A stretch of DNA of 64,000 bases from an uncultured Vicinamibacterales bacterium (GTDB lineage: Bacteria > Acidobacteriota > Vicinamibacteria > Vicinamibacterales > JAKQTR01): positions 9,284-73,283 of the forward strand of contig CAYNDV010000004.1 of NCBI GenBank assembly GCA_964396055.1. Reading direction: 5' to 3'. Below the pieces are notes generated by a model. The model was given only the letters and a program-made list of their open reading frames with translations. It made no database searches and was not told where the DNA came from. A program made the translations under genes and the position numbers. Positions 3,145 to 51,784 of this stretch are shown here, in pieces (positions within the stretch are counted from its first letter, which is position 1; every line of letters begins with the position of its first letter).

Positions 3145-3345
3145 GGCGATGTTCGATCCCTGGCGGCATGTCCGGCCGGCTGGTGTCGGATGACCGACAC
3201 ACCCTCCGTGGACAGGCGCCCTGGCTTGACGGCCTGTGCGTGCGATTCGAAGCCGCCCGCGTCCGCGCGGGCGCGCTGCCATGGTGGGTCTGCACAAAGA
3301 GTTCCATATCCGGCGTCGCTCCCGGCGCGGCCGCGGCGGATGGCG

Positions 3346-9755: not shown

Positions 9756-11573
9756 TCAGGCGACGGCTTCGGCCGGCTCCCGGTCGTTCACGATGGGGTA
9801 CCCGGCCGGCAGGGCCCAGTCGAACTCCTGCGCCTCCACCACCTTCATCTGCTCGCACGAGTAGTGGGTCGGGTCGAAGACGGCGGCCGGCAGGTGCTGG
9901 CTGACGGCCTCGCCGAAGCCCAGGAACTCGGCGTAGTCGCGGTGGAACCCGTCGCAGATGCCCATCAGCGAGCACGCGCTGCAGGCCTGCTCCTTCGCGT
10001 ACGGGTGCATGACCTTCGGCATCAGGATCCGGAATTCCTTGTACGCGAGTTCGAGCGGGCTGGCGCCGGCCACCGGCCCGAGTTCGGGCAGGTACGACAC
10101 GTACTCGTAGCCCGAGTCCGCGGCCATGCGCTGGAGGGGGTTGGGGCATCCGTCCCCGCCGGCCGGGACCATCGCCGGCGCAAACACCTCGATGGTGTCT
10201 TCGCCGAAGCCGGCAGCCGCGAGCAGGGCCGAAATGGCCGCGCGCGAACTCTGCGAGGTGTTGATCACGAGATCCGGCGGATGGGCGGCGAGCCACTCGG
10301 GCGTTTCCCACGGCAGGCCGTGCAGGTGCGACGCGGTGCGGTACTGCGCCGAGGAGATGAACGCGACGAAGCGCAGCCGTCCCGCCAGCGCCGGCGACGC
10401 GGCGGCCGCCTGCATCACGGCCACGCCGATCGGCGCGCTGCCGAAGAGCGCGGCCGTCAGGCTCCCGGCCGCGCCGCGGACCCGGTCTTCGAGCGCCGCC
10501 AGCGCGCCGCGCACCGAGGCGCCCCAGCGCTGCGCGGCCGGCAGGCACGCCAACTCGGTCCCGAATGCGCGCGTCCGTACGGCCTCGACATGGCGGAAGA
10601 AGTTCACGGGTTCGTCCAGGGGACCCGTCGCCTGGCGCTGGGCCGGCGCGCCCGTCCAGGATTCGCCCGCGCTCTCCCACTCGTGCAGGTCGTAGATGAT
10701 CTGCTGGAAGTTCTGCACGTACTTGCGGTACCGCTCCGGAAAGAGACAGAAGGGCAGGTACCGGACGTTGGCCTCGACCTCGTGCGCCTCCAGGTAGTCG
10801 AGCACCGGCAACAGGTGATCGACGGCGTCCGAGTAGCGGGGTACGTTCTCGAGGCTGCGCTTGTTGCCCTGGCTCTGATCGACAAAGGGGTTGAAGGCGA
10901 TGAAGTTCACGGCCCGCGCGCCCCGGTCGACGGCCAGGCGCGCCACATCCATGAGATCCGGCAGGGCCTCCTGGCACAGCACGGTGTTGAAACGGAACGG
11001 TACGCCGAGGTCGGCCAGGTTGGCGATGGCGCGCTGCATCCGGTCAGCCGCGCCCGGGACGCGCACCACCTTGTCGTAGCGCGCGCCGAGGCCGTGCACG
11101 CTCAGCAGGAAGTCGTAGACGCCGGCGTCCTGCAACTGGCGGCACTTGTCCCGGCTGGCCAGCGCGAAACCGTTGGAGATGAGCGTGGGCTTCAGCCCGA
11201 TCGCGTTGCAGTACTCGAGCAGGGGCACGATGTGCCGGTAGATGGTCGGCTCGCCGCCCTGGATGTCGACGGCGTTGTTGCCGTACACGTCCACGAGCGT
11301 CCGGCACATCGCCTGGATCTTCTCGAGCGGCATGAACGCATGTTCCGGGTGGTGGCTGTCGGCGATCTTGTCGAGGAAGTAGCAGAAGTGGCACCGCAGG
11401 TTGCACGTCTGCCCGATCCAGAGCACGCCGCGGCGGCAGAGCGCCCGATGGTTGGTCAGGACGTACCCGTCCTTGTGGATGACGCGAATCGCGTGGGGTG
11501 CTGCGCTCGGCACGATGGTTCCTCCTGCTGATCCGGACCGTGTTCCACCGGTCCGCTCTCCGGCCGCGGTCAC
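9756..11573 (-). CDS. Radical SAM enzyme with a long C-terminal extension (Rossmann-like module plus CxxC...C motif)
   Basis: GVLWIGQTCNLRCHFCYF gives the CxxxCxxC cluster and DIQGGEPT gives the SAM-binding GGE motif. The C-terminal part contains RFVAFISSAQYRTASHLHGLPWETPEWL and CSACSLMGICDG. The GTG start forms a GTGA overlap with the upstream stop at 11570-11573. Confidence 0.8.
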   Translation of the reverse strand: MTAAGERTGGTRSGSAGGTIVPSAAPHAIRVIHKDGYVLTNHRALCRRGVLWIGQTCNLRCHFCYFLDKIADSHHPEHAFMPLEKIQAMCRTLVDVYGNNAVDIQGGEPTIYRHIVPLLEYCNAIGLKPTLISNGFALASRDKCRQLQDAGVYDFLLSVHGLGARYDKVVRVPGAADRMQRAIANLADLGVPFRFNTVLCQEALPDLMDVARLAVDRGARAVNFIAFNPFVDQSQGNKRSLENVPRYSDAVDHLLPVLDYLEAHEVEANVRYLPFCLFPERYRKYVQNFQQIIYDLHEWESAGESWTGAPAQRQATGPLDEPVNFFRHVEAVRTRAFGTELACLPAAQRWGASVRGALAALEDRVRGAAGSLTAALFGSAPIGVAVMQAAAASPALAGRLRFVAFISSAQYRTASHLHGLPWETPEWLAAHPPDLVINTSQSSRAAISALLAAAGFGEDTIEVFAPAMVPAGGDGCPNPLQRMAADSGYEYVSYLPELGPVAGASPLELAYKEFRILMPKVMHPYAKEQACSACSLMGICDGFHRDYAEFLGFGEAVSQHLPAAVFDPTHYSCEQMKVVEAQEFDWALPAGYPIVNDREPAEAVA

Positions 11574-17614: not shown

Positions 17615-17953
17615 TCAGGCGGTGACACCCGGGCCGGCCGGGTACTTGTCTCCGATCACGCTCGGCATCTTGACGACGACCGTGGCCGCCTCGGTCAGTG
17701 CCTCGAAGTCGGTTGGTTCGCCCGGCGCGAGCAGGACGATGTCGCCCGCGGTCAGGGTCTCGCCGTTCATCCGGACCGTGCCGGCGGCAATCAGGGTCAG
17801 TTCGGTCGCCACCCGGTGGACGTGGGCGGCCTCGGCCGCGCCAGCCGCATACCGCTTGTACGCGACCTCACAGGCCGACGTCCGGATGCACGACGGCTCG
17901 AAATCGCCGACCATCCAGCCGCCAACCATGTCGGTCAACCGACACCGTGTCAT
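17615..17953 (-). CDS. Cupin-domain protein, first gene of the long minus-strand glycosylation operon
   Basis: Track ORF 17615..17989 trimmed to MTRCRLTDMVGGW (ATG at 17953, GAGGAG SD). The cupin-like core is AHVHRVATELTLIAAGTVRMNGETLTAGDIVLLAPG. Confidence 0.6.
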   Translation of the reverse strand: MTRCRLTDMVGGWMVGDFEPSCIRTSACEVAYKRYAAGAAEAAHVHRVATELTLIAAGTVRMNGETLTAGDIVLLAPGEPTDFEALTEAATVVVKMPSVIGDKYPAGPGVTA

Positions 17954-18034
17954 CGTCGCGCTCCTCGGCAACCGGGGCGAATGGCCCATTCAGGGCCGGG
18001 ACCGCGGGCCCGTGCCGGGTCCCAGGGGGCTGGC

Positions 18035-18050
18035 TGCAAATCCGGATCCA
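18035..18050 (-). promoter_or_regulatory. Candidate sigma54 (-24/-12) promoter for the cupin...sulfotransferase operon
   Basis: The minus strand reads TGGATC-CGGAT-TTGCA, with exact GG-N10-GC spacing and a perfect TTGCA. It is ~70-80 nt upstream of the cupin ATG and immediately downstream, in the minus-strand sense, of the AT-rich palindrome pair. Confidence 0.45.
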
Positions 18051-18054
18051 GCCG

Positions 18055-18118
18055 CATAAACCAATCCCGGATTGATTGATGCGCCCCGGTGAATAAATCA
18101 ATCCGGGATTGATTTGCC
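18055..18118. repeat. Pair of AT-rich ~29-bp palindromic units (locus A); the same unit as at 41044-41110
   Basis: A1 is GCATAAACCAATCCCGGATTGATTGATGC. A2 is ATAAATCAATCC-G-GGATTGATTT, a perfect 10+1+10 dyad centred at 18105. The consensus is GCATAAATCAAYCC(S)GGRTTGATTTATGC. A2 overlaps the last codons and stop (KSIPD*) of the GDPD gene. Confidence 0.85.
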
Positions 18119-18784
18119 GGCGAGTGTCGCGGCCAGTGCTGCGGGATAGTCGGTGCAGATGCCGTGGATGCCCCAGGCCAGGGCCTGGCTCCAGCGGGCC
18201 CTGGACTCGGCCAGGGACCGGCCGTGCAGGTCGGGTGAGACGAGGTGAACCAGGCGCCCGGCCCCTGTCAGCCGCTCGACATCCTCCCGTGCGGCCCATG
18301 GACCGTCGAACTCGTCGAGCCAGATGACGGAGGCCTCCGGGATGGACAGCGCCCGCTCGATGGGCTCTCCACGATCGCTGACCCGGGCCGCGAGCTGAAT
18401 CCGGGGGTGGGCCTCCCTGAACAACCGGGCGGCGCGACCAGGCTCGTCTTCCAGCAGTTCCATGTCGAACAGGAAGACCTGGCCGCTGATGCCCTCTCGG
18501 TCCAGCCAGGACACCAGTTCGGCTTCGTATCCGAGCTCCTTCACGTTGAGTGCGATGAGCGCGTCGGGATACCGACGCACCTCGGCGCAGAACGCGCCGG
18601 CGTCGAGACCGTCGCCGGGCGGCTGCGGATCGTGGGACAGATAGAAACGGCCGTCCGCGTGGCGGCGGATGTCGGTTTCGAGTCCCCAGCCAGATCCGAG
18701 CGCTTCCCGGATGGCGGGGAGGGTGTTTTCCGTGGTCCGGTCGGCGCCGGCAACATTGGCCCGGTGAGCGAGGATGCGGATCAC
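18098..18784 (-). CDS. Glycerophosphodiester phosphodiesterase (GDPD) family protein
   Basis: Track ORF 18098..19315 trimmed to the GTG at 18784 (VIRILAHRANVAGADRTTENTLPAIREALGSGWGLETDIRRHADGRFYLSHD). The HR...ENT...E-x-D pattern is typical of GDPD. The start is uncertain. Confidence 0.65.
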   Translation of the reverse strand: MIRILAHRANVAGADRTTENTLPAIREALGSGWGLETDIRRHADGRFYLSHDPQPPGDGLDAGAFCAEVRRYPDALIALNVKELGYEAELVSWLDREGISGQVFLFDMELLEDEPGRAARLFREAHPRIQLAARVSDRGEPIERALSIPEASVIWLDEFDGPWAAREDVERLTGAGRLVHLVSPDLHGRSLAESRARWSQALAWGIHGICTDYPAALAATLAGKSIPD

Positions 18785-18876
18785 GCCCGGGCGGTTGCAA
18801 GAGACGGGCCGACGCCGGCCAGCCGGACGCCTGCTGCGGGAGGCGGTGGAGGTGTAAGATCCGCGTCGAGGAGCGC

Positions 18877-21417: not shown

Positions 21418-22134
21418 TCACCGGGCCAGATCGGCAGCGGCGGCGTGATCGGCCAGCAGCAGGACGGACGCGCTCCCGCAGACGACCCGTGAGACGGGCA
21501 GGGTGCCCGAGGGATCCTCCACGGCGGCACGCACCGCGTGCCGCTTCTCCCGTCCCAGCGCGAACACGATGAGGTGCGACGCCGCCGTCAGGGCCCGGAG
21601 GGTCAGGGTGACGCGGACGGCCGGTGGCTTGGGCGCATCGCGGACGACAGCCACGGTCCGCGCGTCGTCATCGAGCAGCGGGTGCCCCGGGAAGAGCGAA
21701 CACACATGGGCGTCGGGCCCGAGTCCGAGCAGGATGACGTCGAGGCCGCCGCCCGGCCCCGCGGCCCGCGCGAGGCGGTCCGCGTACGCGTCCGCGACGG
21801 CACCGAGATCGGGGCGCTCGGCCTCGATGCGGTGCACGCGATCGGCGGTTGCCGGGACGCGGTCCAGGCACACTTCGCGCGCCAGCCTGTAATTCGAGTC
21901 CTCGTGATCTGGCGGCACGGCCCGTTCGTCTCCCCAGAAGATGTCCAGGCTGCCCCACGGCAGCGCCGCAGTGGCGAGGGCGGGGCCGAGCGTGCGGAAC
22001 CCGGTGCCCCCGGTGAGGGCCATCGATGCCCGCCCGCGGGACTCCACCGCCCGTGTCAACACGGCCGCGCACCGGGCGGCCAGCAACCGGGCCAGCAGGC
22101 CCTGGTCCGCCACGATGAGGTCGGGCGATCGCAT
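21418..22134 (-). CDS. pgl: 6-phosphogluconolactonase
   Basis: [11 protein letters not shown]...[20 protein letters not shown]...[21 protein letters not shown] are classic Pgl/NagB-superfamily motifs. The gene is divergent from zwf. Confidence 0.85.
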
Positions 22135-22188
22135 GAGGCTGATAGGATAGCCCAGGTGCGCGCAGGGGCGCGCCCTGGAGCACCCGCG

Positions 22189-23547
22189 ATGAGCCCACGT
22201 CCCTCCGTGCCTTCCGACGCCCTCGTCCTGTTCGGATCGAGCGGCGACCTTGCGTCACGCAAGATCTTCCCGGCGCTCTACGCCATGGCGCGTCGAGGAC
22301 GGGTGACGTTCCCGGTGATCGGCGTCGGGCGCTCGGGCTGGTCGCTCGAGACCTTCGTGGCCAGGGCCAGGCGCAGCGTGATCGATCGGGTGGGCCAGAT
22401 CGACGAGACGGCGTTCGCCGCCCTGGCGTCGCGCCTGCAGTACGTGGACGGCGACTATCATGAGGCCGCGACCTTCGAGCGGATTCACGCGGCCCTCGGG
22501 CCGGCATCGCGGCCGGTGTTCTACCTCGCGATCCCGCCGAGCATGTTCACGGTGGTCGTGTCGCAGTTGGCGCGGGCCGGGTGCACGCGTGATGCGCGCG
22601 TGGTGGTGGAAAAGCCCTTCGGCCGCGACCTGGCCAGCGCCGAGGACCTCAACCGCACACTGCACGAGGCCTTTCCCGAGCACTCGGTGTTCCGCATCGA
22701 CCACTACCTGGGCAAGGGCCCGGTCCAGAACATCCTGTACTTCCGCTTCGCCAACGCCTTTCTCGAACCGATCTGGAACCGCCATCACGTGGCGGGGGTG
22801 CAGATCACGCTCGCCGAACAGTTCGGGATGAACGGGCGCGGCAAGTTCTACGAGGAGGTGGGCGTCGTCCGCGACATCATCCAGAACCACCTCCTGCAGC
22901 TGATCTCGTACCTGGCCATGGAGGCGCCGTCGGGCACCTACTCGGAAGCGATCCGCGACGAACAGGCGAAGGTGCTGCGGACGGTGCGCCCGCTGGACCG
23001 GGAGCACCTGGTGCTGGGGCAGTACCGCGGGTACCTGGACGAACCGGGCGTGGCGCCCGGGTCGCAGGTGCCCACCTACGCGGCCGCCCGGCTGCACATC
23101 GATTCATGGAGGTGGTCCGGCGTGCCGTTCACCGTCCGGGCGGGGAAGGGCCTGGCGGCCACCGTGAGCGAAGTCGTCGTGACGCTCCGCAATCCGCCCC
23201 AGGTCGTCTTCGCCGAAGGCCTGCCGGAGCCCTGCAACTACGTGCGGTTCCGGCTGGGTCCGGACGTGGCGATCGCCATCGGCGCGCGCGTCAAGACCGC
23301 CGGCGAGGGCACGACCGGGCACCCCGTCGAACTGGTCCTGACGCACGATCCCCGGGCGGCGGCGATGGGCGACTACGAACGCCTGCTCGGCGACGCCATG
23401 GCGGGCGATCCCCAACTCTTCGCCCGCGAGGACGTCGTCGAAGCCGCCTGGGCCGTGGTGGACCCGGTGCTGGGCGCGGGCGGCCCGCTCCACGTGTACG
23501 AGCCGGGCAGTTGGGGACCCGCCGCCGCAACCCCCTGGTTCCGTTGA
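22189..23547 (+). CDS. zwf: Glucose-6-phosphate 1-dehydrogenase
   Basis: Trimmed to [31 protein letters not shown] (GxxGDLA NADP site). RIDHYLGK is the active-site motif, and [10 protein letters not shown] is also present. Confidence 0.9.
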
Positions 23548-23550
23548 GTG

Positions 23551-23573
23551 AAAAAGGGGCCTGGCCCCTTTTT
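23551..23573. terminator. Bidirectional intrinsic terminator between convergent zwf and ppk2
   Basis: AAAAAGGGGCC-T-GGCCCCTTTTT is a perfect GC stem flanked by an A-tract and a T-tract. It sits 4 nt after the zwf stop and touches the ppk2 stop. Confidence 0.8.
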
Positions 23574-24475
23574 CATTCGGCCAGGAGCAGGCGCCGGGCG
23601 GCCCCGAGTTCTTTCTGCTGCGCCGGCGTCACCACCGGGTAGGCCAGGTCCAGCGATCCGAGCGCGTCGACCGCCGCGGCCGCGACAATCGTGCGCGTGA
23701 ACCACTTGTTGTCGGCCGGCACCACGTACCAGGGCGCTTCCTCGGAGGCGGTGGCGCGGATCATGTCCTCGTAGGCCCGCATGTAGTCCTTCCAGAACCC
23801 CCGCTCGCGGGCGTCGGCCGACGAGAACTTCCAGTTCTTCTCGGGCCGGTCCAGGCGTTCGAGGAACCGGCGCTTCTGCTCGCGTCGTGAGACGTGCAGG
23901 AAGAACTTGCGGATCAGCACGCCGTTGCGGCTGAGATACCGCTCGAAGCTCCGGATGTCCTCGTAGCGCTCGCGCCAGATCCGGCCCGACACGAGGTCCG
24001 GCGGCAGTTTCTGCTTCGCCAGAATCTCCGGGTGCACGCGCACCACGAGTACCTCTTCGTAGTACGACCGATTGAAGATGCCGATCCTGCCGCGCTCGGG
24101 CAGGTGGCGCTGACAGCGCCAGAGGAAATCGTGATCCAGTTCCTCGGCCGACGGGGCCTTGAAGGCCGCGACCTGACATCCCTGCGGGTTGACGCCCGAC
24201 ATGACGTGCTTGATGGCGCCGTCCTTGCCGGCGGCGTCCATCGCCTGGAAGATGAACAGCACCGCCCAGCGGTCCTGGGCGTACAGCATGTCCTGCAGGG
24301 CGGCGAGGGCGTCGATGCCCGTGGTCAGGGCTTCCTTCGCCCGCTCCTTGTCCTCCTGCTTGAGGTTGCCGGTGTCCGAGGGGCTGATGTCGTCCAGCCG
24401 GAACTTCCGGCCATTCGAGATGCGGTACGGGCGCGACAGCTCGCGGGCGGCCTTGACGACGTTCTTCAGTTTCAT
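23573..24475 (-). CDS. ppk2: Polyphosphate kinase 2 (PPK2) family protein
   Basis: FQAMDAAGKDGAIKHV is a Walker-A-like motif. IFNRSYYEEVLVVRVH and RERYEDIRSFERYLSRNGVLIRKFFLHVSRREQKRRFLERL are also present. The start is set at MKLKNVVKAAR (ATG 24475); the track start at 24502 is possible. Confidence 0.85.
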   Translation of the reverse strand: MKLKNVVKAARELSRPYRISNGRKFRLDDISPSDTGNLKQEDKERAKEALTTGIDALAALQDMLYAQDRWAVLFIFQAMDAAGKDGAIKHVMSGVNPQGCQVAAFKAPSAEELDHDFLWRCQRHLPERGRIGIFNRSYYEEVLVVRVHPEILAKQKLPPDLVSGRIWRERYEDIRSFERYLSRNGVLIRKFFLHVSRREQKRRFLERLDRPEKNWKFSSADARERGFWKDYMRAYEDMIRATASEEAPWYVVPADNKWFTRTIVAAAAVDALGSLDLAYPVVTPAQQKELGAARRLLLAE

Positions 24476-24492
24476 CGGCGTAGTATAGGGCC

Positions 24493-24648
24493 ATGAGTAC
24501 ATCTGCAGAAGTCGCGCGCACTGGCATCACGTTCGGGACCGCCCTCGCCATCACGATCTCGTGGAGCCTGCACAAGTCGATTTTCTGGGCGATCCTGCAC
24601 GGCCTCCTGTCGTGGTTCTACGTGCTCTACTTCGCCGTCACGCGGTGA
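24493..24648 (+). CDS. Small (51 aa) two-helix membrane protein, below the ORF-track size cut-off
   Basis: Own translation: MSTSAEVARTGITFGTALAITISWSLHKSIFWAILHGLLSWFYVLYFAVTR*. The composition is hydrophobic and non-antisense-like, and the gene is divergent from ppk2. Confidence 0.45.
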   Translation: MSTSAEVARTGITFGTALAITISWSLHKSIFWAILHGLLSWFYVLYFAVTR

Positions 24649-27930: not shown

Positions 27931-28671
27931 GTGACCGACCATGCTGAGGCGCCCGTCACCGTGGCCTTCTCGCCTGATGACCTGGTCCGGATGAACCGCT
28001 GGGCCCTGGCGGCCAGCGTCGTGCGCGGGACGGTTCATTCCGTGAACAACATCCTCCAGACCATCGGCGGCCAGGCGGAGATGCTGCTGCAGCAGCCCGA
28101 CGAACCCGACGGCGTGCGCAGACGCATGGACCGGGTCGTGGCGCAGACGGCCCGCGCCGCCACCTACATGCGCGAACTCTCGGCCGTCGTGCGGGACGCC
28201 CCCGCCGCGCCGGACCGCTGCGATGTCAGGCCCGCCGTGGATCGCGTCTACGCGCTGCGGGAGTACGACCTGGCGCGGGAGCGGATTGCGTTCGAGGTGC
28301 ATGCGGGCGGCGAACCCCTGCCGGCAGTGCCCATCGACCAGCCCGCCCTGTGCACCGTGCTGCTGAACCTGATCCTCAACGCCGAACAGGCGCTGGCCGG
28401 CGCGCCGGACGCCCGGATCGCGGTGCTGCTGGAGCGGAGGGGTGACGCCGTGGTGATCGGCGTGCAGGACAACGGCCCGGGCGTGCCCGCCGGCGACCGG
28501 GACCGGGTGTTCGAGCCGTTCGTCACCACCGGCCGGCCGGGGGCGACGCTCGGCCTGGGGCTGGCTGTCTCGCGGCGCCTGGCGCAGGCGCACGGAGGAC
28601 GGCTCGTCCTCGCGGACGGGCCGGACGCCGCCGGCGCACGCGTCGAGTTGATCCTGCCCGTCTCAGGCTGA
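27931..28671 (+). CDS. Cytoplasmic histidine kinase lacking a recognisable sensor domain (HisKA + HATPase_c only)
   Basis: The H-box is GTVHSVNNILQTIGGQAEML, the N-box is LLNLILNAEQA, G1 is VQDNGPGVP and G2 is GLGLAVS. 246 aa. The 3' end overlaps the convergent sigma54-activator gene by 9 nt. Confidence 0.75.
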   Translation: MTDHAEAPVTVAFSPDDLVRMNRWALAASVVRGTVHSVNNILQTIGGQAEMLLQQPDEPDGVRRRMDRVVAQTARAATYMRELSAVVRDAPAAPDRCDVRPAVDRVYALREYDLARERIAFEVHAGGEPLPAVPIDQPALCTVLLNLILNAEQALAGAPDARIAVLLERRGDAVVIGVQDNGPGVPAGDRDRVFEPFVTTGRPGATLGLGLAVSRRLAQAHGGRLVLADGPDAAGARVELILPVSG

Positions 28672-30069
28672 CATCGTCTGGGTGTCCTGGACGCCCAGCC
28701 GGTTCAGCTTGTCGATGAACGTCGTCCGGCTCAGGTTCAGCAGGCGCGCGGCCTGCCGCTTGTTGCCGCCCGTCTTCTCCAGGCATCGCAGGATGAGGTC
28801 GCGCTCGAGCTGCGACACCACCGACGCGAAGTCGAGCCCGTCGTCCGGGATCGTGACGGGGTTCACTGCCGCCGGCTCGCTGGTGCTGCGGATGTCGTCG
28901 GGCAGCGAGCGCGGCGTGATCTCGCGATCGGCGCCCGACATCGCCACGGAGTGCTCGACGGCGTTCTCGAGCTGGCGGATGTTGCCCGGCCAGGGCGCGG
29001 CCATGAGCTGCCGGATCGTGTCCTGCGACAGGGTCTTGCAGGGGAGGTTGTTGCTGCGGCACGACTTCTGGACGAAGTGGCGCGCCAGCAGCGGGATGTC
29101 CTCGACGCGGTCGCGCAGGGGCGGCAGCGTGATGGGAATCACGTTGAGGCGGTAGTACAAGTCCTCACGGAACTGGCCTTCCTTCACGAGCTTGCGCAGA
29201 TCCGTGTTGGTTGCGGCGATGATGCGGGCGTCGAACTTGACCGGCCGGGAATCGCCGACGCGCTCGATCTCGCGTTCCTGCAGGGCCCGCAGCAGCTTCG
29301 ACTGGAGCGGCAGCGGCATCAGCCCCACTTCATCGATGAAGAGGGTGCCCCGATGGGCGAGCTCGAAGCGGCCGATGCGGGGTGCCACGGCGCCGGTGAA
29401 CGCGCCCTTGGTGTGCCCGAACAGCTCGGCCTCCGCCAGTTGCTCAGGAATCGCGGCGGAGTTGAACGCCACGAACCGGTGCTCGGCCCGCTGGCTGATG
29501 TTGTGGATGGTGCGCGCCACCAGTTCCTTGCCGGTGCCGGTCTCGCCGTGGATCAGGACCGTGCTGTTCATCGGGCTGATCGCATCCAGCGTGGCGAACA
29601 CTTGACGCATGGCCGGGCTCTGGCCGATGATGCCCGACATCCGGCTGTAGTCGTTGAGTTGGGCCCGCAGTTCGGCGTTCTCGCGCTGCAGTTGACGGCG
29701 CTCGAACGCGGCCCGCAGCACCCGGGAGACCTGCGACAGCTGGAACGGCTTGCAGAGGAAGTCGATCGCGCCCTCTTTCATGGCGGTCACGGCTTCGGCC
29801 ACGCCCCCGAACCCCGTGATGACGATGGCGATCAGGTCGGGATACCGCTCGACCGCCGCCCGGAGGATGTCGAGGCCGTCCGCGTCGGGCAGACGCAGGT
29901 CCACGACGCACGCGTCGAACGCGAACGCCGATACGTGTTCGAGTGCCTCGCGGCCGGTCGCGGCCAGCGTGGGGCGGAACCCGTCGGCGGCCAGCGACTC
30001 GCCGAGCAGTTCGCGGAAGTCGGTTTCGTCTTCGATGACGAGGACGGTGGGCTCCTGGTTCAGTGCCAT
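28663..30069 (-). CDS. Sigma54-dependent response regulator (NtrC/FleR/FlrC class: REC + AAA+ + HTH)
   Basis: Trimmed to MALNQEPTVLVIEDE (ATG 30069, GAAGGA SD). Walker A is HGETGTGKE, the sigma54-contact loop is GAFTGA, and the arginine-finger region is RFREDLYYRL. The C-terminal Fis-type HTH is GNKRQAARLLNLSRTTFIDKL. Confidence 0.9.
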   Translation of the reverse strand: MALNQEPTVLVIEDETDFRELLGESLAADGFRPTLAATGREALEHVSAFAFDACVVDLRLPDADGLDILRAAVERYPDLIAIVITGFGGVAEAVTAMKEGAIDFLCKPFQLSQVSRVLRAAFERRQLQRENAELRAQLNDYSRMSGIIGQSPAMRQVFATLDAISPMNSTVLIHGETGTGKELVARTIHNISQRAEHRFVAFNSAAIPEQLAEAELFGHTKGAFTGAVAPRIGRFELAHRGTLFIDEVGLMPLPLQSKLLRALQEREIERVGDSRPVKFDARIIAATNTDLRKLVKEGQFREDLYYRLNVIPITLPPLRDRVEDIPLLARHFVQKSCRSNNLPCKTLSQDTIRQLMAAPWPGNIRQLENAVEHSVAMSGADREITPRSLPDDIRSTSEPAAVNPVTIPDDGLDFASVVSQLERDLILRCLEKTGGNKRQAARLLNLSRTTFIDKLNRLGVQDTQTMSA

Positions 30070-30227
30070 ACGATCCTTCGATGCGAGGAAGAAGGTGACC
30101 GCGTGTCGGGCTGGCTCAGTCGACCCTGGCTGAACCGTCCCGGTGAACCGCCCCAGGTTCATGAAATCGACATCGGTGTCGATTAGTCGTCATGGGGTGG
30201 TCCGGCCAACGTCAGATCGCAACGTCC

Positions 30228-30929: not shown

Positions 30930-30945
30930 GGGCACTGTTCTTGCA
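30930..30945 (+). promoter_or_regulatory. Sigma54 (-24/-12) promoter of the flgB operon
   Basis: GGGCAC-TGTTC-TTGCA, with GG at 30931-30932 and GC at 30943-30944. This is a near-perfect match to TGGCAC-N5-TTGCA, ~65 nt upstream of the flgB start and its GGGAGG SD. Confidence 0.7.
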
Positions 30946-31010: not shown

Positions 31011-31424
31011 GTGCCAGAACTGAGTGATGCCGCATTGGTCGAGGCGTTGCGCCGCCACATGACCGTGGCGGTCGGCCGACAGGTGGTCGCCTCGTCGAAC
31101 CTGGCCAACGTCAGCACCCCCGGGTACAAGGCGAAAGAAGTCGACTTCACCCAGATGCTCGACGAGCAGCTCACCGGGGGCACGCTGCCGATGCAGACGA
31201 CCGGGCCCGGGCACCTGGGCGGGGCGATGCGGCCGGGCGCAACGGCCGATGCCCTCCCGACACGCGAGGTCGCCGGCAGCGGCGAGCGCCGCGACGGCAA
31301 CACCGTGCAACTGGACCGCGAACTGCTGACGATGACCTCTGCCGCCGGCGACTTCGCCCGCGCCCAGACGGCGCTGGCCGCGAAGTTCCGCCTGCTGCGT
31401 TACGCCATCAACGAGGGGCGGTAA
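31011..31424 (+). CDS. flgB: Flagellar basal-body rod protein FlgB
   Basis: GRQVVASSNLANVSTPGYKAKEVDF is the rod N-terminal ANxxTxGY motif. The start is moved from the track (30966) to the GTG at 31011. That start has a GGGAGG SD and lies downstream of the predicted sigma54 TSS. Confidence 0.85.
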   Translation: MPELSDAALVEALRRHMTVAVGRQVVASSNLANVSTPGYKAKEVDFTQMLDEQLTGGTLPMQTTGPGHLGGAMRPGATADALPTREVAGSGERRDGNTVQLDRELLTMTSAAGDFARAQTALAAKFRLLRYAINEGR

Positions 31425-39051: not shown

Positions 39052-41046
39052 GTGGACGCCGCCCTGTTCCCTCCGTTCGTGACCGCCGCCGGCCAGCCGG
39101 CCGGCGACGGCACCGCGGCCGCCGCCCCGCCCGGGCCGGCCGGCGAGTTGTTCGGGGCGGCGCTCGCCACCGCCCTGGAACGCCCGTCCGCAGCCCCGGC
39201 GGCGCCTGGGGCCACCCCGACCGAGCGGAGCGGCGGAGCCGTCCCGCTTCCGGTGCCCGGACGCCCGGCCGACGATCCGGCGTCAGCACCTGTCCTGTGG
39301 TTTAACCCCGTGGCCTGCGCCCTGGTCTGGCAGCCCGACGCGGCGAGGCCTCCGGCCTCCCTCGACCTGGGCGCCGTCACCAGTCCGTTGGCCGATCCAC
39401 TCGAGGACCAGACCGTCGCCGGAGACGAGCAGACCGAGCCGCCGAGCCCCTTCAGTTGCGCGCACCCCGGTGTGCCCGGAGACCCGACGGCGCTGCCCGG
39501 ATCTGTCGATGTGATTCCCCTCGACACGTCGGGCCGTGAACCAGGCTCGACCGACGAGCCGCCGCCCGACCATGGGGCCGGCGCGCGCGACCGCGAGGAA
39601 GATGCCCCGCCGGCACCGCGGATCGGGCTGCCCGAAACCGCGAGGCCTGATGGCCTTCCGGTCCTGCCTGTCGCAGTGCCCGGCACCATGGGCATCGAGC
39701 CGGTCCGGGTGGACCGACAGCCGGTTCCAGCCGGTGACCCCGCGGCACACCTCGCCGCGCCGGCCGGGTCTGGCGCGTCGAGGCGCGACACAGACTCCGC
39801 CGCGCGAACACCTGCGGCGGGCGACCTGCCGACCTCTGGTGCGTTGGCGGCCGGCGTGGTGCCGGCAACCCAGGGACGCGACCATCTCGGCCCGGCGCAG
39901 GAAGCAGCCGGGCCCGCGTGGGAACCGCAGGGGATCGAGGCGGAGCCCCCCCTGCGGGCGCCTTTGCCGGGGGCCAGGCTCGCCGACGCGCCGGCCCCCC
40001 ATGCCCACGACGTCCGCGCCCGCGAATCCAATGTCGATGTGAACCTACCGACCCGGGAAGCCGAGTCGGGGCGCCGGCCGCTGACCGTCGAAGAACTGGT
40101 CCGCGCGGCCCTGCGCGGAGCCGCGGTCGAGACCGCCCGGCCGGAGCGGATTCCCCTGGGCGCGCCGCTGCCCGCGAATCTGAACGCCACGCTCCAGACC
40201 GATGCCGCCAGGGACCTGTTCGCCTCGGCGACGGCTCTGCGCGAGACCCTGCTCCGGCAGGCCGCCGACCGGCCCGTTCCCGCGGCGGCGGCCGAACCCG
40301 CCGCGTTCGGGACCACCAGGGCCAGGCCGGCGCCCTCGTCCGGACAACAGGCTGACGCGTCCGGGGAGCCGCCAGCGGCCGACCCCCTGCCGGCCAGGCC
40401 CGTGCGCGACGGGGCATGGACCCCGGCAGATAACGAGACCGCGGGTCTCTCTGGCCGGACAGCCGCACCCTCCACCGGCCAGGACGGCGGGGCGCGGTCG
40501 GGCTCCGGTGAGCCTCAGCCACGGCCGAGGCCGCAGACGCACACGTCGGTATCAGCCGACGCGGCCGTGTATGCCGCCGGGACCCGGATGAGCGGCGCGG
40601 AACTGGCCAGCCGTGTGAGCGAACTGGCCCAGCGCCCGGCGGTGGCAACCCCGGCGCCCCCACCGCAGGAACCGACGGCCAACGGCGAACCCCTGAGCCA
40701 CGCGGTGGTCCGGTCGCTCAAGTTCCAGTGGGCGCAGGGCGGGGGCGAGGCCCGGCTGCAGTTGCGGCCGGAGTACCTCGGGGACCTGAGCGTGTCCCTG
40801 CGCGTGAGCGGCGCGTCGGTGACGGCGATTCTGTCGGCCGAGTCAGCCTCCGTCCGCGCGTGGATCGACACGCACCAGTCCGACCTCCGCCGTGCCCTCG
40901 AAGCCCAGGGCCTGAGCCTGGACAGCCTCATCATCGACCCTGACGGCCACCCGCAGGAACGCCAGGAGTCGCCCGGCCGGCAGGAGCACCGCGCACCCCA
41001 CCGCCGCCGCCACCCCGACGCCGGCCGGTTCGAGGCGCTGCTGTAA
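39052..41046 (+). CDS. fliK: Flagellar hook-length control protein FliK
   Basis: A long P/A-rich ruler region is followed by a C-terminal Flg_hook-like domain: EARLQLRPEYLGDLSVSLRVSGASVTAILSAESASVRAWIDTHQSDLRRALEAQGLSLDSLII. Position is after flgE. Confidence 0.8.
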   Translation: MDAALFPPFVTAAGQPAGDGTAAAAPPGPAGELFGAALATALERPSAAPAAPGATPTERSGGAVPLPVPGRPADDPASAPVLWFNPVACALVWQPDAARPPASLDLGAVTSPLADPLEDQTVAGDEQTEPPSPFSCAHPGVPGDPTALPGSVDVIPLDTSGREPGSTDEPPPDHGAGARDREEDAPPAPRIGLPETARPDGLPVLPVAVPGTMGIEPVRVDRQPVPAGDPAAHLAAPAGSGASRRDTDSAARTPAAGDLPTSGALAAGVVPATQGRDHLGPAQEAAGPAWEPQGIEAEPPLRAPLPGARLADAPAPHAHDVRARESNVDVNLPTREAESGRRPLTVEELVRAALRGAAVETARPERIPLGAPLPANLNATLQTDAARDLFASATALRETLLRQAADRPVPAAAAEPAAFGTTRARPAPSSGQQADASGEPPAADPLPARPVRDGAWTPADNETAGLSGRTAAPSTGQDGGARSGSGEPQPRPRPQTHTSVSADAAVYAAGTRMSGAELASRVSELAQRPAVATPAPPPQEPTANGEPLSHAVVRSLKFQWAQGGGEARLQLRPEYLGDLSVSLRVSGASVTAILSAESASVRAWIDTHQSDLRRALEAQGLSLDSLIIDPDGHPQERQESPGRQEHRAPHRRRHPDAGRFEALL

Positions 41047-41110
41047 ATCAACCCCGGGTTGATTTATGCACTGGAGATGCAGGGTGCATAAATCAACCCG
41101 GGATTGGTAC
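41044..41110. repeat. Pair of AT-rich ~29-bp palindromic units (locus B) that together form a 67-nt super-palindrome; the same unit as at 18055-18118
   Basis: B1 is TAAATCAACCC-C-GGGTTGATTTA, a perfect 11+1+11 dyad that contains the fliK TAA stop, followed by TGCAC. The spacer is TGGAGATGCAGG. B2 is GTGCATAAATCAACCCGGGATTGGTA. GATTTATGCAC and GTGCATAAATC are exact reverse complements of each other. Confidence 0.85.
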
Positions 41111-41210
41111 GTGTCGGTCTACCGTCACCTGGTCCGGCCCGGCGGCCGGCCCAGGGTCGGCTTCCATTCCTGAAGATCCATCCAGTCAGCTACTTGCAGC
41201 CTGGCGTGGG

Positions 41211-41226
41211 CGGCATCCTCCTTGCC
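41211..41226 (+). promoter_or_regulatory. Candidate sigma54 (-24/-12) promoter of the fliL...fliN operon
   Basis: CGGCAT-CCTCC-TTGCC, with GG at 41212-41213 and GC at 41224-41225 (GG-N10-GC). It is ~50 nt upstream of the fliL ATG and ~112 bp downstream of the centre of palindrome B2. Confidence 0.55.
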
Positions 41227-41277: not shown

Positions 41278-41793
41278 ATGGCCAAAGAGACTCCGGAGAC
41301 GCCGGCGCCCCTGCCCGGGAAGAACAAGTCGAGCAAGAAGGGCCTCATCATCGGCCTGGCCGTGGCGATGGTCGCCGCCGCCGCCGGCGGCGGGGCGGCG
41401 TACTGGAAATGGGGCATGGCCGCCGCCAGCGCGGCTGCGCCGGCCGCCCACGCGGCGCCGGTTCCCGCCGTCGTCGAGGAACCCGGCATGGTGCCGTTCG
41501 AGCCGTTCCTGGTCAACCTCGCCGATGAGGGCGGGCAGTCGTACCTGCGGGTGACGCTGAACCTGCTGGTGGCCAGCGAAGAAGAGGCGAAAACGCTCGA
41601 AGGCAAGCCCGTCGTGCGCACCATGATGCGCTCGGCCGTGCTCGAAGTGCTCTCGACCCAGACGGCCGCCCAGCTCGTCACGCCGGAAGGCAAGGCGGAA
41701 CTCAAGAAGGCGATTGCCGCCAAGATCGACTCCCTCAAGCTTCATGTCCGGGTGCACGATGTCCTCTTCTCCGACTTCGTCGTTCAGCAGTGA
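41278..41793 (+). CDS. fliL: Flagellar basal-body-associated protein FliL
   Basis: An N-terminal TM helix is followed by VPFEPFLVNLADEGGQSYLRVTLNLLVASEEEAKTLEGKPVVRTMMRSAVLEVLS...VHDVLFSDFVVQQ, the FliL family pattern. Confidence 0.88.
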   Translation: MAKETPETPAPLPGKNKSSKKGLIIGLAVAMVAAAAGGGAAYWKWGMAAASAAAPAAHAAPVPAVVEEPGMVPFEPFLVNLADEGGQSYLRVTLNLLVASEEEAKTLEGKPVVRTMMRSAVLEVLSTQTAAQLVTPEGKAELKKAIAAKIDSLKLHVRVHDVLFSDFVVQQ

Positions 41794-42142
41794 CGCCGCT
41801 GCCCAGCCCGGGTGCGTCCAGTCCCCGCAGGCGCCCAGGGCGAACCCGGGGACCCCGGCCGCGCCCGCTGCGGCCCCGGGCAACGAACCACTTTTCCCGG
41901 GCCTGATGGACGTCTCGCTGCCCGTGGCCGTCCGCCTCGGGTCCGGCGCCATCACCGTCGGCGACTGCCTCGCGCTGCGGCCGCACAGCATCGTCCGTCT
42001 GACGCAGAACGTCGGCACGGACCTCGACCTCGTGGTCAACGGCGAAACCGTGGCCCGGGGCGAGGTGGCGATCGTCGACGACAGCACGTCCATTCGCCTC
42101 ACCGACATCTCCGTGACGCCGGGCGACGGAGTGCCCGCATGA
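41759..42142 (+). CDS. FliN-like SpoA-domain protein (extra paralogue at the fliL-fliO junction)
   Basis: LMDVSLPVAVRLGSGAITVGDCLALRPHSIVRLTQNVGTDLDLVVNGETVARGEVAIVDDSTSIRLTDI has a SpoA/FliN C-domain layout. The start is ambiguous: ATG 41759 overlaps fliL by 35 nt, and the internal ATG near 41903 would give a SpoA-only protein. Confidence 0.65.
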   Translation: MSSSPTSSFSSDAAAQPGCVQSPQAPRANPGTPAAPAAAPGNEPLFPGLMDVSLPVAVRLGSGAITVGDCLALRPHSIVRLTQNVGTDLDLVVNGETVARGEVAIVDDSTSIRLTDISVTPGDGVPA

Positions 42143-42501
42143 TCGCGTGGGCCCTGCTGGCGCAGGAGTCGCCCCTGCCGTCCGCGGTGGATGGCACGGT
42201 GCTCCGGGCGTTTGCCGGCGTCGTTCTCGTCCTGGGGCTGGTGATCGGGCTGGCGATCCTGCTGCGCCGCGGCGTGCTCAGGCTGCCGGGGCAGCATGGG
42301 GCGCGGGTCCTGTCGGTGGAGACGGCGCTGTCGCTCGGCGATCGGCGGTCGGTCGTGATCGTCAACGCCGAGGGCCGGCGGTTCCTGCTGGGCCTCTCGA
42401 CGACGCAGGTGAACCTGCTCAGCGAACTCGGGCCCACGCGGGCGAACTTCGACCGGGCCCTCGACCGCGCCACCTCGTCGTCTCCGGTGGAGCCCGCATG
42501 A
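42139..42501 (+). CDS. fliO: Flagellar export-gate assembly protein FliO
   Basis: It has a single TM helix (LRAFAGVVLVLGLVIGLAILL) followed by LSVETALSLGDRRSVVIVNAEGRRFLLGLSTTQVNLLSEL. ATGA overlaps occur on both sides, and it lies upstream of fliP. Confidence 0.75.
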   Translation: MIAWALLAQESPLPSAVDGTVLRAFAGVVLVLGLVIGLAILLRRGVLRLPGQHGARVLSVETALSLGDRRSVVIVNAEGRRFLLGLSTTQVNLLSELGPTRANFDRALDRATSSSPVEPA

Positions 42502-49272: not shown

Positions 49273-50006
49273 CCACTCCCGACGAGAACCTGCCCGAACG
49301 GGATCGGCTCGTCGTGTCGCACGTCGGGCTCGTCAAGGCGATGGCCCAGCGGCTGGCGCGGCGGCTGCCCGCCCAGGTGGAAGTGGCCGACCTCGTGAGC
49401 ATCGGCGTGCTGGGCCTGGTGGAGGCGGCCGGCCGGTACCAGCCGGCGACCGGCGTGCCCTTCGATGCCTTCGCCCGCCGCCGGGTGCACGGCGCGATGC
49501 TGGACGCCCTGCGCGACCTGGACTGGGCCCCGCGGTCGCTGCGCAAGCTGCGCCGCCACGTCGACAGCACGATCGCGCAGCTGCGGTCGCAGGTGGGGCG
49601 CGAGCCGACGGAAGCCGAGATCTCCACGGCGCTGGGCATGAACGCCGAGCAGTACGCGGCGGCGCTGGAACAGCTGCGCACGCTGGAGGTGGCCATGATC
49701 CGGCCCCTCGAGGACACGACCTCGGACCGCCAGCCGCTGCTCGACGTCTGCATCGACCCCGACGAGGGACCGGACCTGCGTCTCGAGCGCCGCGAGCTGC
49801 GCCAGTTGCTGGCGGCGGCCATCACCGAGCTGCCCGAACGTGAACGCCAGGTGCTGGCCCTCTACTACGAAGAAGAAATGACGATGGCCGAAATCGGCGA
49901 GGTGCTTGGCGTGTGCGAGTCGCGCGTGTCGCAGCTGCGCTCGCTGGCCATCTCGCGCCTGCGCTCGGCGCTCCGGCCGCCGAAGGCCCTCGCGAAGGCA
50001 AGCTGA
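49269..50006 (+). CDS. fliA: Flagellar sigma factor FliA (sigma28)
   Basis: Trimmed to MTTPDENLPERDR (ATG 49269, ATGA overlap). Region 2 is DLVSIGVLGLVEAAGRYQPATGVPFDAFARRRVHGAMLD. Region 4 is ERERQVLALYYEEEMTMAEIGEVLGVCESRVSQLRSLAISRLR. Confidence 0.92.
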   Translation: MTTPDENLPERDRLVVSHVGLVKAMAQRLARRLPAQVEVADLVSIGVLGLVEAAGRYQPATGVPFDAFARRRVHGAMLDALRDLDWAPRSLRKLRRHVDSTIAQLRSQVGREPTEAEISTALGMNAEQYAAALEQLRTLEVAMIRPLEDTTSDRQPLLDVCIDPDEGPDLRLERRELRQLLAAAITELPERERQVLALYYEEEMTMAEIGEVLGVCESRVSQLRSLAISRLRSALRPPKALAKAS

Positions 50007-50998
50007 TGGGCAAGATCCTCACCCAGGAAGAAATCGACCTGCTGCTGGGATCGGCCAGCGAGCTCCGCAAGGAGTCGCCGACGTCGATGCCGTCGGTGAA
50101 CTCCGTCACCTACGACTTCCGGCGCCCCGACCGGGTGTCGAAGGAGCAGCTGCGAGCCCTGCACCTGCTCCACGACCGCTTCGCCCGCAACGTATCGGCC
50201 TCGCTGTCCGCGTACCTGCGCACGGTCACCGACGTGTCGATCGTGTCGGTCGAGCAGTTGACCTACGCCGAATTCCTGATGTCGCTGCCGGACCCGACGG
50301 CCTTCTACGCCCTCACGCTGTCGCCGATGGACGGCGTCGGTGCCCTGGAGCTGAACCCCACGCTGGCCTTCACGATGATCGACCGGATCCTCGGCGGCAG
50401 CGGCAAGGGCGTGCAGCTGAACCGTGCGCTGACGGAGATCGAGCAGAACGTCGTCGATGGCATCATCAAGCTCGTCCTCGAGAACCTCGGCGAGGCGTGG
50501 AAGTCCATCCACGAAGTGCAGTTCCGCATCACCGGCCGCGAGACCCGCCCGCAGATGCTGCAGGTGGCCGCGCCCAACGAAACGGTGCTGCTCCTGGTCT
50601 TCGACATCCGCCTCGGCGAGGCGCGCGGCATGCTCAACTTCTGCCTGCCGGCGGCCACCATCGAGGCCTTCGGCGACCTCTTCACCCAGGGCTGGTACCG
50701 CTCGCGCCGCGAGCCGTCGGCCGCCCAGCGCGAGGCCCTCTTCCGGTCCCTCGGGCGCGTGCCGCTGCCCGTGACGGCGTTCCTCGAGACGTCGATGACC
50801 GCGCGCGAGGTCGTCCAGCTGACCCCGGGCGACGTGATCTCGCTCGGGCGGCAGATTACACACCCGGTGAAGGTCCGGGTGGGCGCCACCACGAAGTACG
50901 CGGGCCGCCTCGTCCGGCACGGCGGCCGCATGGCCATCGCCGTGAGCGACGCGCCCGGCCGGCCGGGCGCCCAGACGCAGACAGGGAGCGCAGCGTGA
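50006..50998 (+). CDS. fliM: Flagellar motor switch protein FliM
   Basis: MGKILTQEEIDLLLG is the CheY-P binding LSQxEIDALL-type N-terminus. YDFRRPDRVSKEQLRALHLLHDRFARN follows, and the C-terminus is SpoA-like. Confidence 0.93.
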   Translation: MGKILTQEEIDLLLGSASELRKESPTSMPSVNSVTYDFRRPDRVSKEQLRALHLLHDRFARNVSASLSAYLRTVTDVSIVSVEQLTYAEFLMSLPDPTAFYALTLSPMDGVGALELNPTLAFTMIDRILGGSGKGVQLNRALTEIEQNVVDGIIKLVLENLGEAWKSIHEVQFRITGRETRPQMLQVAAPNETVLLLVFDIRLGEARGMLNFCLPAATIEAFGDLFTQGWYRSRREPSAAQREALFRSLGRVPLPVTAFLETSMTAREVVQLTPGDVISLGRQITHPVKVRVGATTKYAGRLVRHGGRMAIAVSDAPGRPGAQTQTGSAA

Positions 50999-51765
50999 CT
51001 GAACGGGACGTCCTCCGGGCGCTGATCGAGGAACTGGCCAACGTCGCCGCGGCCATGGTCGGCGGCGACGCCCGCGTCGAGCCCGGCACGGGCGAGCAGG
51101 CGGCTGTCCAGGTGCTGACCTTCGGCGTGACCGGGCCCGTGGAGGGCCATGCGGTGCTCGGGCTGCACACCGATGACGCCCGCATGCTGGCCGGGCTCGT
51201 CATGGGATTCGACGAGCCGCCCTCCGACGATGTCATCACCGACAGCCTGCAGGAAATGTCGCAGCAGGCGGCCAGCGCCGTGACCGTCAGCCTCGGCGCG
51301 CCGCTCAAGGTCGTCGTGGACGGCCCGGTGCACGTCTCGGCCGCCGTGCCGACCACGGCCGACTGGGCGACGCTCTCGGCCGGCAGCCTCACCTTGCGCG
51401 TGGCCATGTGGCACAGCCTGGCGCCCGCGCGCACCGCCGCGCCCAGGCCCGCGGCTGCCCCGTCGGCGCCCGCGCCCCAGGGCCGCCCGCCCGCCGCATC
51501 CGCCGGCAACCTGGATCTGATCCTCGACATCGAACTGCCCTTGTGGGTACGGTTCGGATCGACCGCCATGACGCTGCAGGCGCTCTGCAAGGTCGGGCCC
51601 GGGACCACGATCGACCTCGAGCGATCGCCGGACGACCCGGTGGACGTCATGGTCAACGACACCGTCATCGCCCGGGGCGAGGTGGTCGTCGTGGCGGGGA
51701 ATTACGGCGTGCGCGTGACCGAGGTCGTGAGCACGACGGACCGCATCCGGTCCATGGCCGGATAG
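50995..51765 (+). CDS. fliN: Flagellar motor switch protein FliN with a ~170-aa CheC-like N-terminal extension (FliY-like architecture, degenerate phosphatase motifs)
   Basis: GTG 50995 (GTGA overlap, GGGAG SD). The C-terminus NLDLILDIELPLWVRFGSTAMTLQALCKVGPGTTIDLERSPDDPVDVMVNDTVIARGEVVVVAGNYGVRVTEVV is a canonical FliN. The N-domain has ALIEELAN and DSLQEMSQ in place of D/S-x3-E-x2-N. Confidence 0.85.
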   Translation: MTERDVLRALIEELANVAAAMVGGDARVEPGTGEQAAVQVLTFGVTGPVEGHAVLGLHTDDARMLAGLVMGFDEPPSDDVITDSLQEMSQQAASAVTVSLGAPLKVVVDGPVHVSAAVPTTADWATLSAGSLTLRVAMWHSLAPARTAAPRPAAAPSAPAPQGRPPAASAGNLDLILDIELPLWVRFGSTAMTLQALCKVGPGTTIDLERSPDDPVDVMVNDTVIARGEVVVVAGNYGVRVTEVVSTTDRIRSMAG

Positions 51766-51784
51766 CCGAGGCTGAGGAGGCCGC

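Follow-up and report, generated by a model that had tools for sequence, protein, structure and literature searches.

Palindromic repeats in bacterial genomes

REPINs are inverted doublets of repetitive extragenic palindromic (REP) sequences that are mobilized by RAYT transposases. Here, we describe two inverted doublets of a short, AT-rich palindrome (hereafter, the unit) in a 64-kb stretch of DNA, referred to throughout as the window, from an uncultured Vicinamibacterales bacterium (contig CAYNDV010000004.1). The window holds a flagellar gene cluster with several sigma54-type promoters beside a Maf/MptE-type glycosylation operon, and the homologues of its FliL and cupin proteins carry Vicinamibacterales or Acidobacteria names. 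To our knowledge, almost no repeat biology is on record for the Vicinamibacterales. Two large super-families of REP sequences are defined by a GTAG or CGTC tag at one end of the repeat (PMC3733652). Untagged REP-like families are also known, and families of terminal inverted repeats (TIRs) linked to RAYT-like TIRYT genes have been reported in Acidobacteria, where they are moderately abundant, partly self-complementary, and arranged as dimers or clusters (Di Nocera et al. 2013, PMC3733652).

The units described here resemble the REP sequences, bacterial interspersed mosaic elements (BIMEs) and REPINs of Enterobacteria and Pseudomonas in several respects. They are short imperfect palindromes of 21–29 nt, they form inverted doublets with the potential for a long hairpin, they are intergenic or lie over gene 3′ ends, and they vary in presence and absence among relatives. 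With the acidobacterial TIRs they share both a phylum and an arrangement in dimers or clusters. We put a probability of roughly 0.55 on the reading that they are REP-like mobile palindromic doublets, and that they represent an undescribed, untagged REP/REPIN-type family of Vicinamibacterales-like Acidobacteriota. The assignment to the REP/REPIN type follows from the signature of inserted palindromes that come in doublets or clusters, fall into sub-families, occupy every intergenic context and sometimes clip the ends of open reading frames (ORFs); the family is called untagged because the GTAG and CGTC tags of the two large super-families are missing.

Four units in two inverted doublets

The window contains four copies of AAATCAAYCC-S-GGRTTGATTT, which form inverted doublets at 18054-18115 (locus A) and 41045-41110 (locus B). 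The surrounding DNA is GC-rich (71% in the window as a whole, and 67–74% along its entire length). A search allowing up to three mismatches returns exactly four units, with 0.00 expected from 100 shuffles, and a profile built from 22 units finds no further copy in the window. The half-site AAATCAAYCC, allowing one mismatch, has seven matches in the window, all within the four units, with 1.2 expected. This agrees with the initial annotation of this DNA, which was made from the sequence alone and had described a paired palindrome at locus A, a second pair at about 41044-41110, and no other copies in 64 kb. The perfect dyad that it had placed at 18105 is likewise confirmed (unit A2, Table 1). 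Its companion A1, given there as 18055-18082, is present and starts one base earlier.

Both doublets are built to the same plan. The two units of each locus are inverted copies of one another, and the two loci are colinear when A is taken on the minus strand and B on the plus. Along the direction of transcription, each doublet begins with a perfect unit that touches the upstream stop codon and continues with a degenerate unit that carries a GGATTGGT variant in its outer arm (in A1, the outer arm on the sense strand is GGATTGGTTT). The inner flanks are also common to both doublets and read TTTATKCAC ... GYGCATMAA. The best-conserved part of the unit is the central YCC-S-GGR. In the window lineage, GCAT/ATGC lengthens the unit to ∼29 nt; the outer GCAT is confined to this lineage, and the flanks elsewhere are CGAAAA/TTTTCG.

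Table 1. Coordinates of the units and associated features in the window, and gene contexts of units in other contigs
Feature	Position	Strand	Description
Unit A2	18095..18115	-	Perfect 10+1+10 dyad AAATCAATCC-G-GGATTGATTT, centre 18105; first in transcription direction; 21/21 identical in relative L037
A2-A1 spacer	18079..18094	-	16 nt between the 21-nt cores; loop of the long hairpin; 8/16 identical to close relative, same length
Unit A1	18054..18082	-	Degenerate 29-mer GCATAAACCAATCCCGGATTGATTGATGC; second in transcription direction; core 18058-18078, 2 mismatches to the dyad
GDPD stop codon TGA	18098..18100	-	Inside A2 arm
GDPD-cupin spacer	17954..18097	-	∼145 nt; only in the clade of the window; genes overlap by 4 nt in L041-L046
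Sigma54-like -24/-12 match TGGATC-CGGAT-TTGCA (TGGATCCGGATTTGCA)	18035..18050	-	4 nt downstream of A1; part of the lineage-specific spacer
Sigma54-like promoter CGGCCCGTCTCTTGCA	18796..18811	-	Ends ∼12 nt before the GDPD GTG start (18784); counterparts in L037, L041, L043
Unit B1	41045..41065	+	Perfect palindrome AAATCAACCC-C-GGGTTGATTT
Unit B2	41090..41110	+	Degenerate AAATCAACCCGGGATTGGTAC, 3 mismatches; outer arm GGATTGGTAC
Inner part of long hairpin, locus B	41053..41102	+	Perfect 19-nt inverted arms 41053-41071 / 41084-41102, 12-nt loop
fliL sigma54 promoter core GGCATCCTCCTTGC	41212..41225	+	Outside the repeat; conserved in L032, L035, L036, L047, L048, units present or not
TGTCGG-N4-CCGACA sites	3184-3199, 17929-17944, 31066-31081, 41112-41127, 57046-57061		
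Units in L014			Unknown protein and SDR gene, divergent
Units in L025/L028			GFO_IDH_MocA and LD-carboxypeptidase, divergent; extra direct half-site
Units in L015/L024			TMEM260-like and MerR, convergent
Unit in L016	L016 41-61		NUDIX; unit at gene 3′ end

Insertion at ancestral gene junctions

Comparison with related genomes indicates that both doublets were inserted. Locus A lies between the GDPD gene (minus strand, about 18098-18784, identified by Pfam and codon-position GC) and the cupin gene, whose true start is 17953 and not 17989. Locus B lies between fliK (TAA stop at 41044-41046) and fliL (41278). The closest relative, R, is represented by L037-L039 at locus A and by L031-L034 at locus B. 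At locus A, R carries both the doublet and the sigma54-like TGGATCCGGATTTGCA box that follows it (cupin 95% identical). In L041/L042, L043/L044, L045 and L046 (cupin 72–84% identical), GDPD and cupin overlap by 4 nt, and there is neither spacer nor doublet. Because the genes overlap in these more distant relatives, the whole spacer represents an insertion into an ancestral operon of overlapping genes. At locus B, the doublet is found at the same place in R, with substitutions (FliL 83% identical), and leaves no trace in four more distant relatives (L035, L036, L047 and L048; FliL 63–67% identical). All four retain the sigma54 promoter GGCAYYYTCCTTGC, preceded by a TGTCGG..CCGWCA motif. No target-site duplications are recognizable at locus B. 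We also considered whether the rest of the locus A spacer belongs to a bigger mobile element, and rejected this, as no second copy was found anywhere. Likewise, the two loci flank a 23-kb block, yet both junctions are ancestral adjacencies, and an invertible segment or a pair of recombination sites was set aside.

The first unit of each doublet is joined to the end of the gene before it. As the initial annotation had read, A2 encodes the last five codons and the stop of GDPD (AAA TCA ATC CCG GAT TGA). In R, a separate stop codon ends GDPD 30 nt before the first unit; the overlap of stop and unit in the window is therefore secondary. At locus B, B1 starts inside the fliK stop, and its first two A's complete the TAA.

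Both doublets precede sigma54-type promoters, as had been proposed from the window sequence. The box beside A1 is confirmed as a GG-N10-GC match (9/11 specified positions); L037-L040 share it unchanged, and loci that lack the spacer also lack the box. The fliL promoter stands at the expected site downstream of the second pair (Table 1). A further sigma54-like promoter, CGGCCCGTCTCTTGCA, precedes GDPD and is probably the ancestral promoter of a GDPD-cupin-HAD-NTP-transferase-WavE glycosylation operon; mRNA from this promoter may be nearly leaderless. An internal promoter ancestral to TGGATC-N5-TTGCA was considered and rejected: L041 has TGGATCCAGTTTTGCA within GDPD, but neither L043 nor the window conserves this sequence.

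The units have diverged less than their surroundings. Between the window and R, they are identical at 76/84 positions (90%), versus 283/373 (76%) for the surrounding non-coding DNA (Fisher p = 0.003), although the evolutionary statistics are thin, with two close genomes only. The spacing of the units is the same in the window and R (37 and 45 bp), and the distance from unit to promoter at locus A differs between them by 14 nt.

Units in other genomes and metagenomes

The perfect 21-mer is found beyond the window in a small number of high-GC loci, on Acidobacteriota/Vicinamibacterales contigs. Among 185,579 representative genomes it has one non-coding high-GC match, in L007, an Acidobacteriota metagenome-assembled genome (CAVUTP01), and JGI metagenomes contain about five distinct high-GC loci. 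These loci carry the dyad mostly in pairs 35–47 bp apart, with unrelated spacers; centre-to-centre distances between units are 30, 30, 35, 37, 43, 45 and 47 bp. The repeat occurs at several non-homologous places: four units at two loci in the window, five units within 8 kb in L007, and five units at two loci in L014. Outside the window, none of the unit contexts is flagellar, and the flanking genes may be divergent, convergent or co-directional. The initial annotation had named many copies without bias toward flagellar or glycosylation promoters as the pattern that would count against a regulatory role, and of this pattern the absence of flagellar bias is what we find.

The units fall into sub-families with AATCC, AGTCC or ACTCC cores, which differ in the stem and share a common architecture. 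In L007, the five units (at 1562, 2832, 4113, 5153 and 5804) occupy five successive intergenic gaps, and four of the five have an AGTCC-S-GGACT core in place of AATCC, which suggests that this genome holds a much denser sub-family. L014 carries a second array, made of three ACTCC-core units (AAC.ACTCC-C-GGAGTTGTTT) with a 30-bp period. Both L014 arrays, the ACTCC array and an AATCC-type doublet (9953-10033 and 405-468), end 10–13 nt upstream of a GTGTACAAT box, with an ATG 7–9 nt after the box. From this layout, they look like palindromes over the -35 region of extended -10 promoters that would produce leaderless mRNAs.

Several ORFs run into a unit and end there. GDPD in the window and the TMEM260-like, MerR and NUDIX genes elsewhere all terminate on the TGA that the arm supplies, read in one common frame (AAA TCA ATC CSG GAK TGA), and ORFs that end in this way acquire the C-terminus KSI(P/R)(D/E) (window 18098-18115; L024 6072-6127; L016 41-61). 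For example, the unit-bearing MerR product is 167 aa long, versus 160 aa in its cluster mates (at least 90% identity), whose loci are without units. The same MerR cluster links L015/L024 to the Vicinamibacterales. The cluster mates were also considered as a source of a clean empty site for the L015/L024 doublet, and were rejected because their downstream gene differs, which breaks synteny. Beside the AATCC units of L025 there is another AT-ended 10-1-10 palindrome, AAAAGGTGCC-T-GGCACCTTTT, located between two divergent -10-like boxes (L025 135-155, equivalent to about 10118-10140 in L028).

Low-GC matches to the 21-mer were set aside (L001-L006, L008, L011, L013, L017-L023, L026, L027 and L030). 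Those that were translated (L001, L006, L008, L013, L021 and L027) were rejected as coding sequence for the ‘KINPGLIY’ motif of a CoA-transferase, according to our own reading and the yfdE annotation under a plasmid match. In the low-GC Flavobacteriales contigs L003, L004, L019, L022, L023, L026 and L030, the 21-mer lies within a longer conserved repeat (ggtggAAATC...GATTTccact), which is present on some contigs in two copies 860 bp or 4.5 kb apart and is taken to be unrelated to the units. Viral contigs have no match to the unit, and a plasmid origin was rejected, as the sole plasmid matches are chance or coding. A search of the literature for the exact sequence also gave no match.

Hairpin potential and predicted consequences of insertion

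As a single strand, each doublet can fold into one long hairpin. In the window, these hairpins have energies of -40 to -44 kcal/mol and begin at the upstream stop codon at both loci; doublet energies range between -40 and -46 kcal/mol, and the z-scores lie between -3.6 and -6.8. Inverted doublets capable of one long hairpin are also present in L014, L015 and L025, with the proviso that any two palindrome copies are complementary by construction. Lone units fold less stably (A2, -6.7 kcal/mol, z = -1.2; B1, -13.8 kcal/mol). No U run follows the doublet hairpins in the window, nothing passes a terminator scan or a sigma70-promoter scan at either locus, and Rfam has no match in the window or in L007, L014 and L025.

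An inverted doublet thus inserted twice in a recent ancestor of this organism. One insertion struck the 3′ end of GDPD and split the ancestral overlapping GDPD-cupin operon, and the other landed directly behind the fliK stop. Both doublets would be transcribed with the upstream gene and would fold, from its stop codon onward, into one long RNA hairpin of about 20–28 bp and about -40 kcal/mol. In cis, the hairpin would most likely stabilize the upstream mRNA at its 3′ end or mark where that mRNA ends, and would limit read-through. Such uncoupling from the upstream gene would leave the downstream operon reliant on its own sigma54 promoter; at locus A, the putative TGGATC-N5-TTGCA promoter would be needed only after the insertion. 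By analogy with families described in the literature, the doublets may have been spread by an HUH/Y1 (RAYT/TIRYT-like) enzyme acting on the hairpin.

A REP-like identity would matter in three ways. For annotation, it keeps a mobile repeat from being labelled a flagellar regulatory site. For repeat biology, it would add an undescribed, untagged REP-like family in the Vicinamibacterales, an Acidobacteriota group of soil and sediment that is rich in uncultured members. The locus also offers an example of operon change, in which a ∼145-nt insertion with a doublet split an overlapping gene pair, altered the C-terminus of a protein, and now lies beside a new promoter-like site.

Observations that do not favor a mobile repeat

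Several observations weigh against a REP-like mobile family. No GTAG or CGTC tag is found at the unit ends. In further departures from REP sequences, BIMEs and REPINs, the units have AT-rich stems in a 71% GC genome, their spacers are not conserved between copies, and their core is common to several lineages and not species-specific. As the spacers differ between loci, the copies are not recent transpositions of one doublet. Apparent copy number in the window is low: unit density ranges from 0 in ∼110 kb of the flagellar and glycosylation loci of relatives, through four in the 64-kb window, to five in 8 kb in L007. The rarity of the 21-mer in public collections likewise argues against a classic high-copy family. 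No RAYT is seen in the window or in unit-bearing loci, and no transposase or HUH gene is present in any unit-bearing locus. When compared with the acidobacterial TIRs by description, the units differ in lacking the GGGGWSAS motif of some TIRs and in having no TIRYT gene next to a unit.

Conservation of the units above background and their identical spacing in the window and R fit protein binding, and the placement of the L014 units just upstream of GTGTACAAT boxes is a typical operator position. The hairpins also give a mixed picture. At locus B, inspection of the inner stem by eye shows a double change from A-T to G-C between the window and R, together with two changes compatible with G.U pairing, all of which keep the sense pairing; the sense energy is -43.8 kcal/mol in R versus -43.5 kcal/mol in the window, and the antisense energy in R drops to -32.5 kcal/mol. 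At locus A in R, the asymmetry is the opposite (antisense -35.1 versus sense -30.9 kcal/mol). Because the strand bias in hairpin stability is inconsistent between the loci, RNA-level selection on the hairpins is suggestive only and is not established.

Alternative explanations

Protein binding could itself explain the repeats. In this alternative, the units would serve as operators for a Vicinamibacterales protein that binds DNA as a dimer, in a sequence-specific manner and with no special tie to flagella; the units would have spread by insertion and been kept by selection for binding. The protein might act as a global repressor, or have an insulating or architectural role, and is possibly a domesticated transposase. 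Such a protein would fit the identity of the 21-mer in unrelated loci and organisms amid differing flanks and spacers, the 90% versus 76% identity of units and neighboring non-coding DNA, and the unchanged spacing of orthologous units around spacer sequence that is 50% identical. The extra direct half-site in L025/L028, the presence of three loci in divergent promoter regions, and the L014 arrays that end shortly before an extended -10-like box and an ATG point the same way. We nonetheless think it unlikely. Some units are found between convergent genes or within the ends of ORFs (L024, L016 and L007-2832), positions at which one would not expect a promoter; the information in two perfect 10-nt arms far exceeds that usually kept in transcription-factor sites; the pairs show no helical phasing; no regulator gene is consistently close to the units; and the one-per-gap distribution of units in L007 is a REP-like density.

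A further variant, which we hold to be more doubtful, makes the 21-bp dyad the target of a conserved, sequence-specific Vicinamibacterales protein (e.g., an HUH transposase that has been domesticated, or a protein with an architectural or insulating role), with a few copies per genome retained at operon boundaries because of their role in partitioning transcription. At locus A, the insertion would then have separated translationally coupled genes of an ancestral sigma54 operon, and a new sigma54 promoter would have been recruited afterward. If true, this would document how a mobile palindrome rewired an operon for flagellin glycosylation. More generally, the family would hold more interest as an insulator if it turns out to be present in few copies and bound by a protein; failing that, it would be an ordinary selfish repeat.

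The initial annotation had also offered a family of terminators, derived from a REP-like element, with an A-tract, a stem and a T-tract. Its REP-like half is close to our conclusion. Its terminator half fits less well, as a single unit is too weak and AT-rich for the terminator scan to accept it, and units also occur in divergent promoter regions, where termination would serve no purpose. A related possibility is that the units are ordinary bidirectional intrinsic terminators of independent origin that have come to look alike by convergence. They do have the AAA-stem-TTT architecture, many copies elsewhere are flanked by CGAAAA...TTTTCG, gene 3′ ends hold most copies, often right after stop codons, and a genuine terminator of the same layout, though of unrelated sequence, is found at 23552-23572. 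However, an identical 21-nt sequence shared between sites is not expected of independent terminators. The single-unit stems are weak, the window hairpins are not followed by a U run, and units lie between divergent gene starts (two loci in L014, and L025/L028). We consider convergent terminators improbable.

The regulatory reading of the initial annotation fares worst. In that reading, the sigma54 activator (28663-30162) or some other HTH protein binds the dyads as a common operator or upstream activating sequence (UAS) and so co-regulates the cupin/glycosylation operon (for flagellin glycosylation) and the fliL operon. In its favor, a GG-N10-GC promoter follows each doublet, the flagellar region is rich in sigma54 promoters, and the two loci are no more than 23 kb apart in the flagellar cluster. 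Tandem palindromes are typical of the enhancers of NtrC/XylR-type enhancer-binding proteins (EBPs), and two dyads 35–47 bp apart upstream of such promoters resemble sigma54 UASs (NtrC, XylR/DmpR, FleQ/FlbD). Comparative data have nevertheless largely refuted this reading already, and we regard it as highly improbable. The doublets are missing from L035, L036, L047 and L048, all of which keep the fliL sigma54 promoter, and the ancestral glycosylation operon has no spacer and is probably served by the conserved promoter upstream of GDPD. Within the window, the other sigma54 promoters (flgB, the EBP gene, 53589 and GDPD) carry no units, and neither unit nor half-site is found near the sigma54-like promoters at 30930, 30233, 53589 and 18811. 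Elsewhere, the same 21-mer stands beside unrelated housekeeping genes that are neither sigma54-dependent nor flagellar. Distance to the promoter is also uneven, about -45/-82 at locus A versus -139/-184 at locus B, with the 14-nt indel in R at locus A and no helical phasing. A shared operator or UAS is thus excluded because the units neither travel with the promoters nor recur at other promoters of the regulon.

Finally, a Xer/dif-like 11-7-11 core site for a tyrosine recombinase was rejected, as the center of the unit is its most conserved part, not a variable one, and L007 has five sites in 8 kb.

Other features of the flagellar and glycosylation region

Downstream of locus B, the flagellar gene order can be read most fully in L035 and L036, where fliL is followed by a short FliN-like gene (FliMN_C only), fliO-P-Q-R, flhB, flhA, flhF, a MinD-like gene and fliA; full-length fliM and fliN come only after fliA. 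The short FliN-like gene overlaps the end of fliL. In the window, across 41278-42500 and 49900-52000, only FliL and FliO are confirmed by Pfam for that order.

The window is also enriched in another, distinct palindrome, TGTCGG-N4-CCGACA, which has five sites at one mismatch or fewer versus 0.41 expected. These sites are located between fliK and fliL, at the start of cupin, in flgB, near the Maf gene, and at the start of a flgJ-like gene, and four of the five are 100–155 nt from a sigma54-like promoter. All relatives conserve the copy between fliK and fliL, which precedes the fliL sigma54 promoter by ∼100 nt. The cupin copy spans codons 4–8 and is kept in L037, L041 and L046; L043 has another palindrome, CGTCG-TCT-CGACG, at the same spot. 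TGTCGG-N4-CCGACA may serve the flagellar/glycosylation regulon as an enhancer or as an RNA hairpin, and is a better candidate than the AT-rich units for a shared flagellar cis element.

The perfect 10-1-10 palindrome AAAAGGGGCC-T-GGCCCCTTTT at 23552-23572 lies between the convergent genes for G6PD (21538-23547) and PPK2 (23573-24502), and is a textbook bidirectional terminator whose sequence is unrelated to that of the units.

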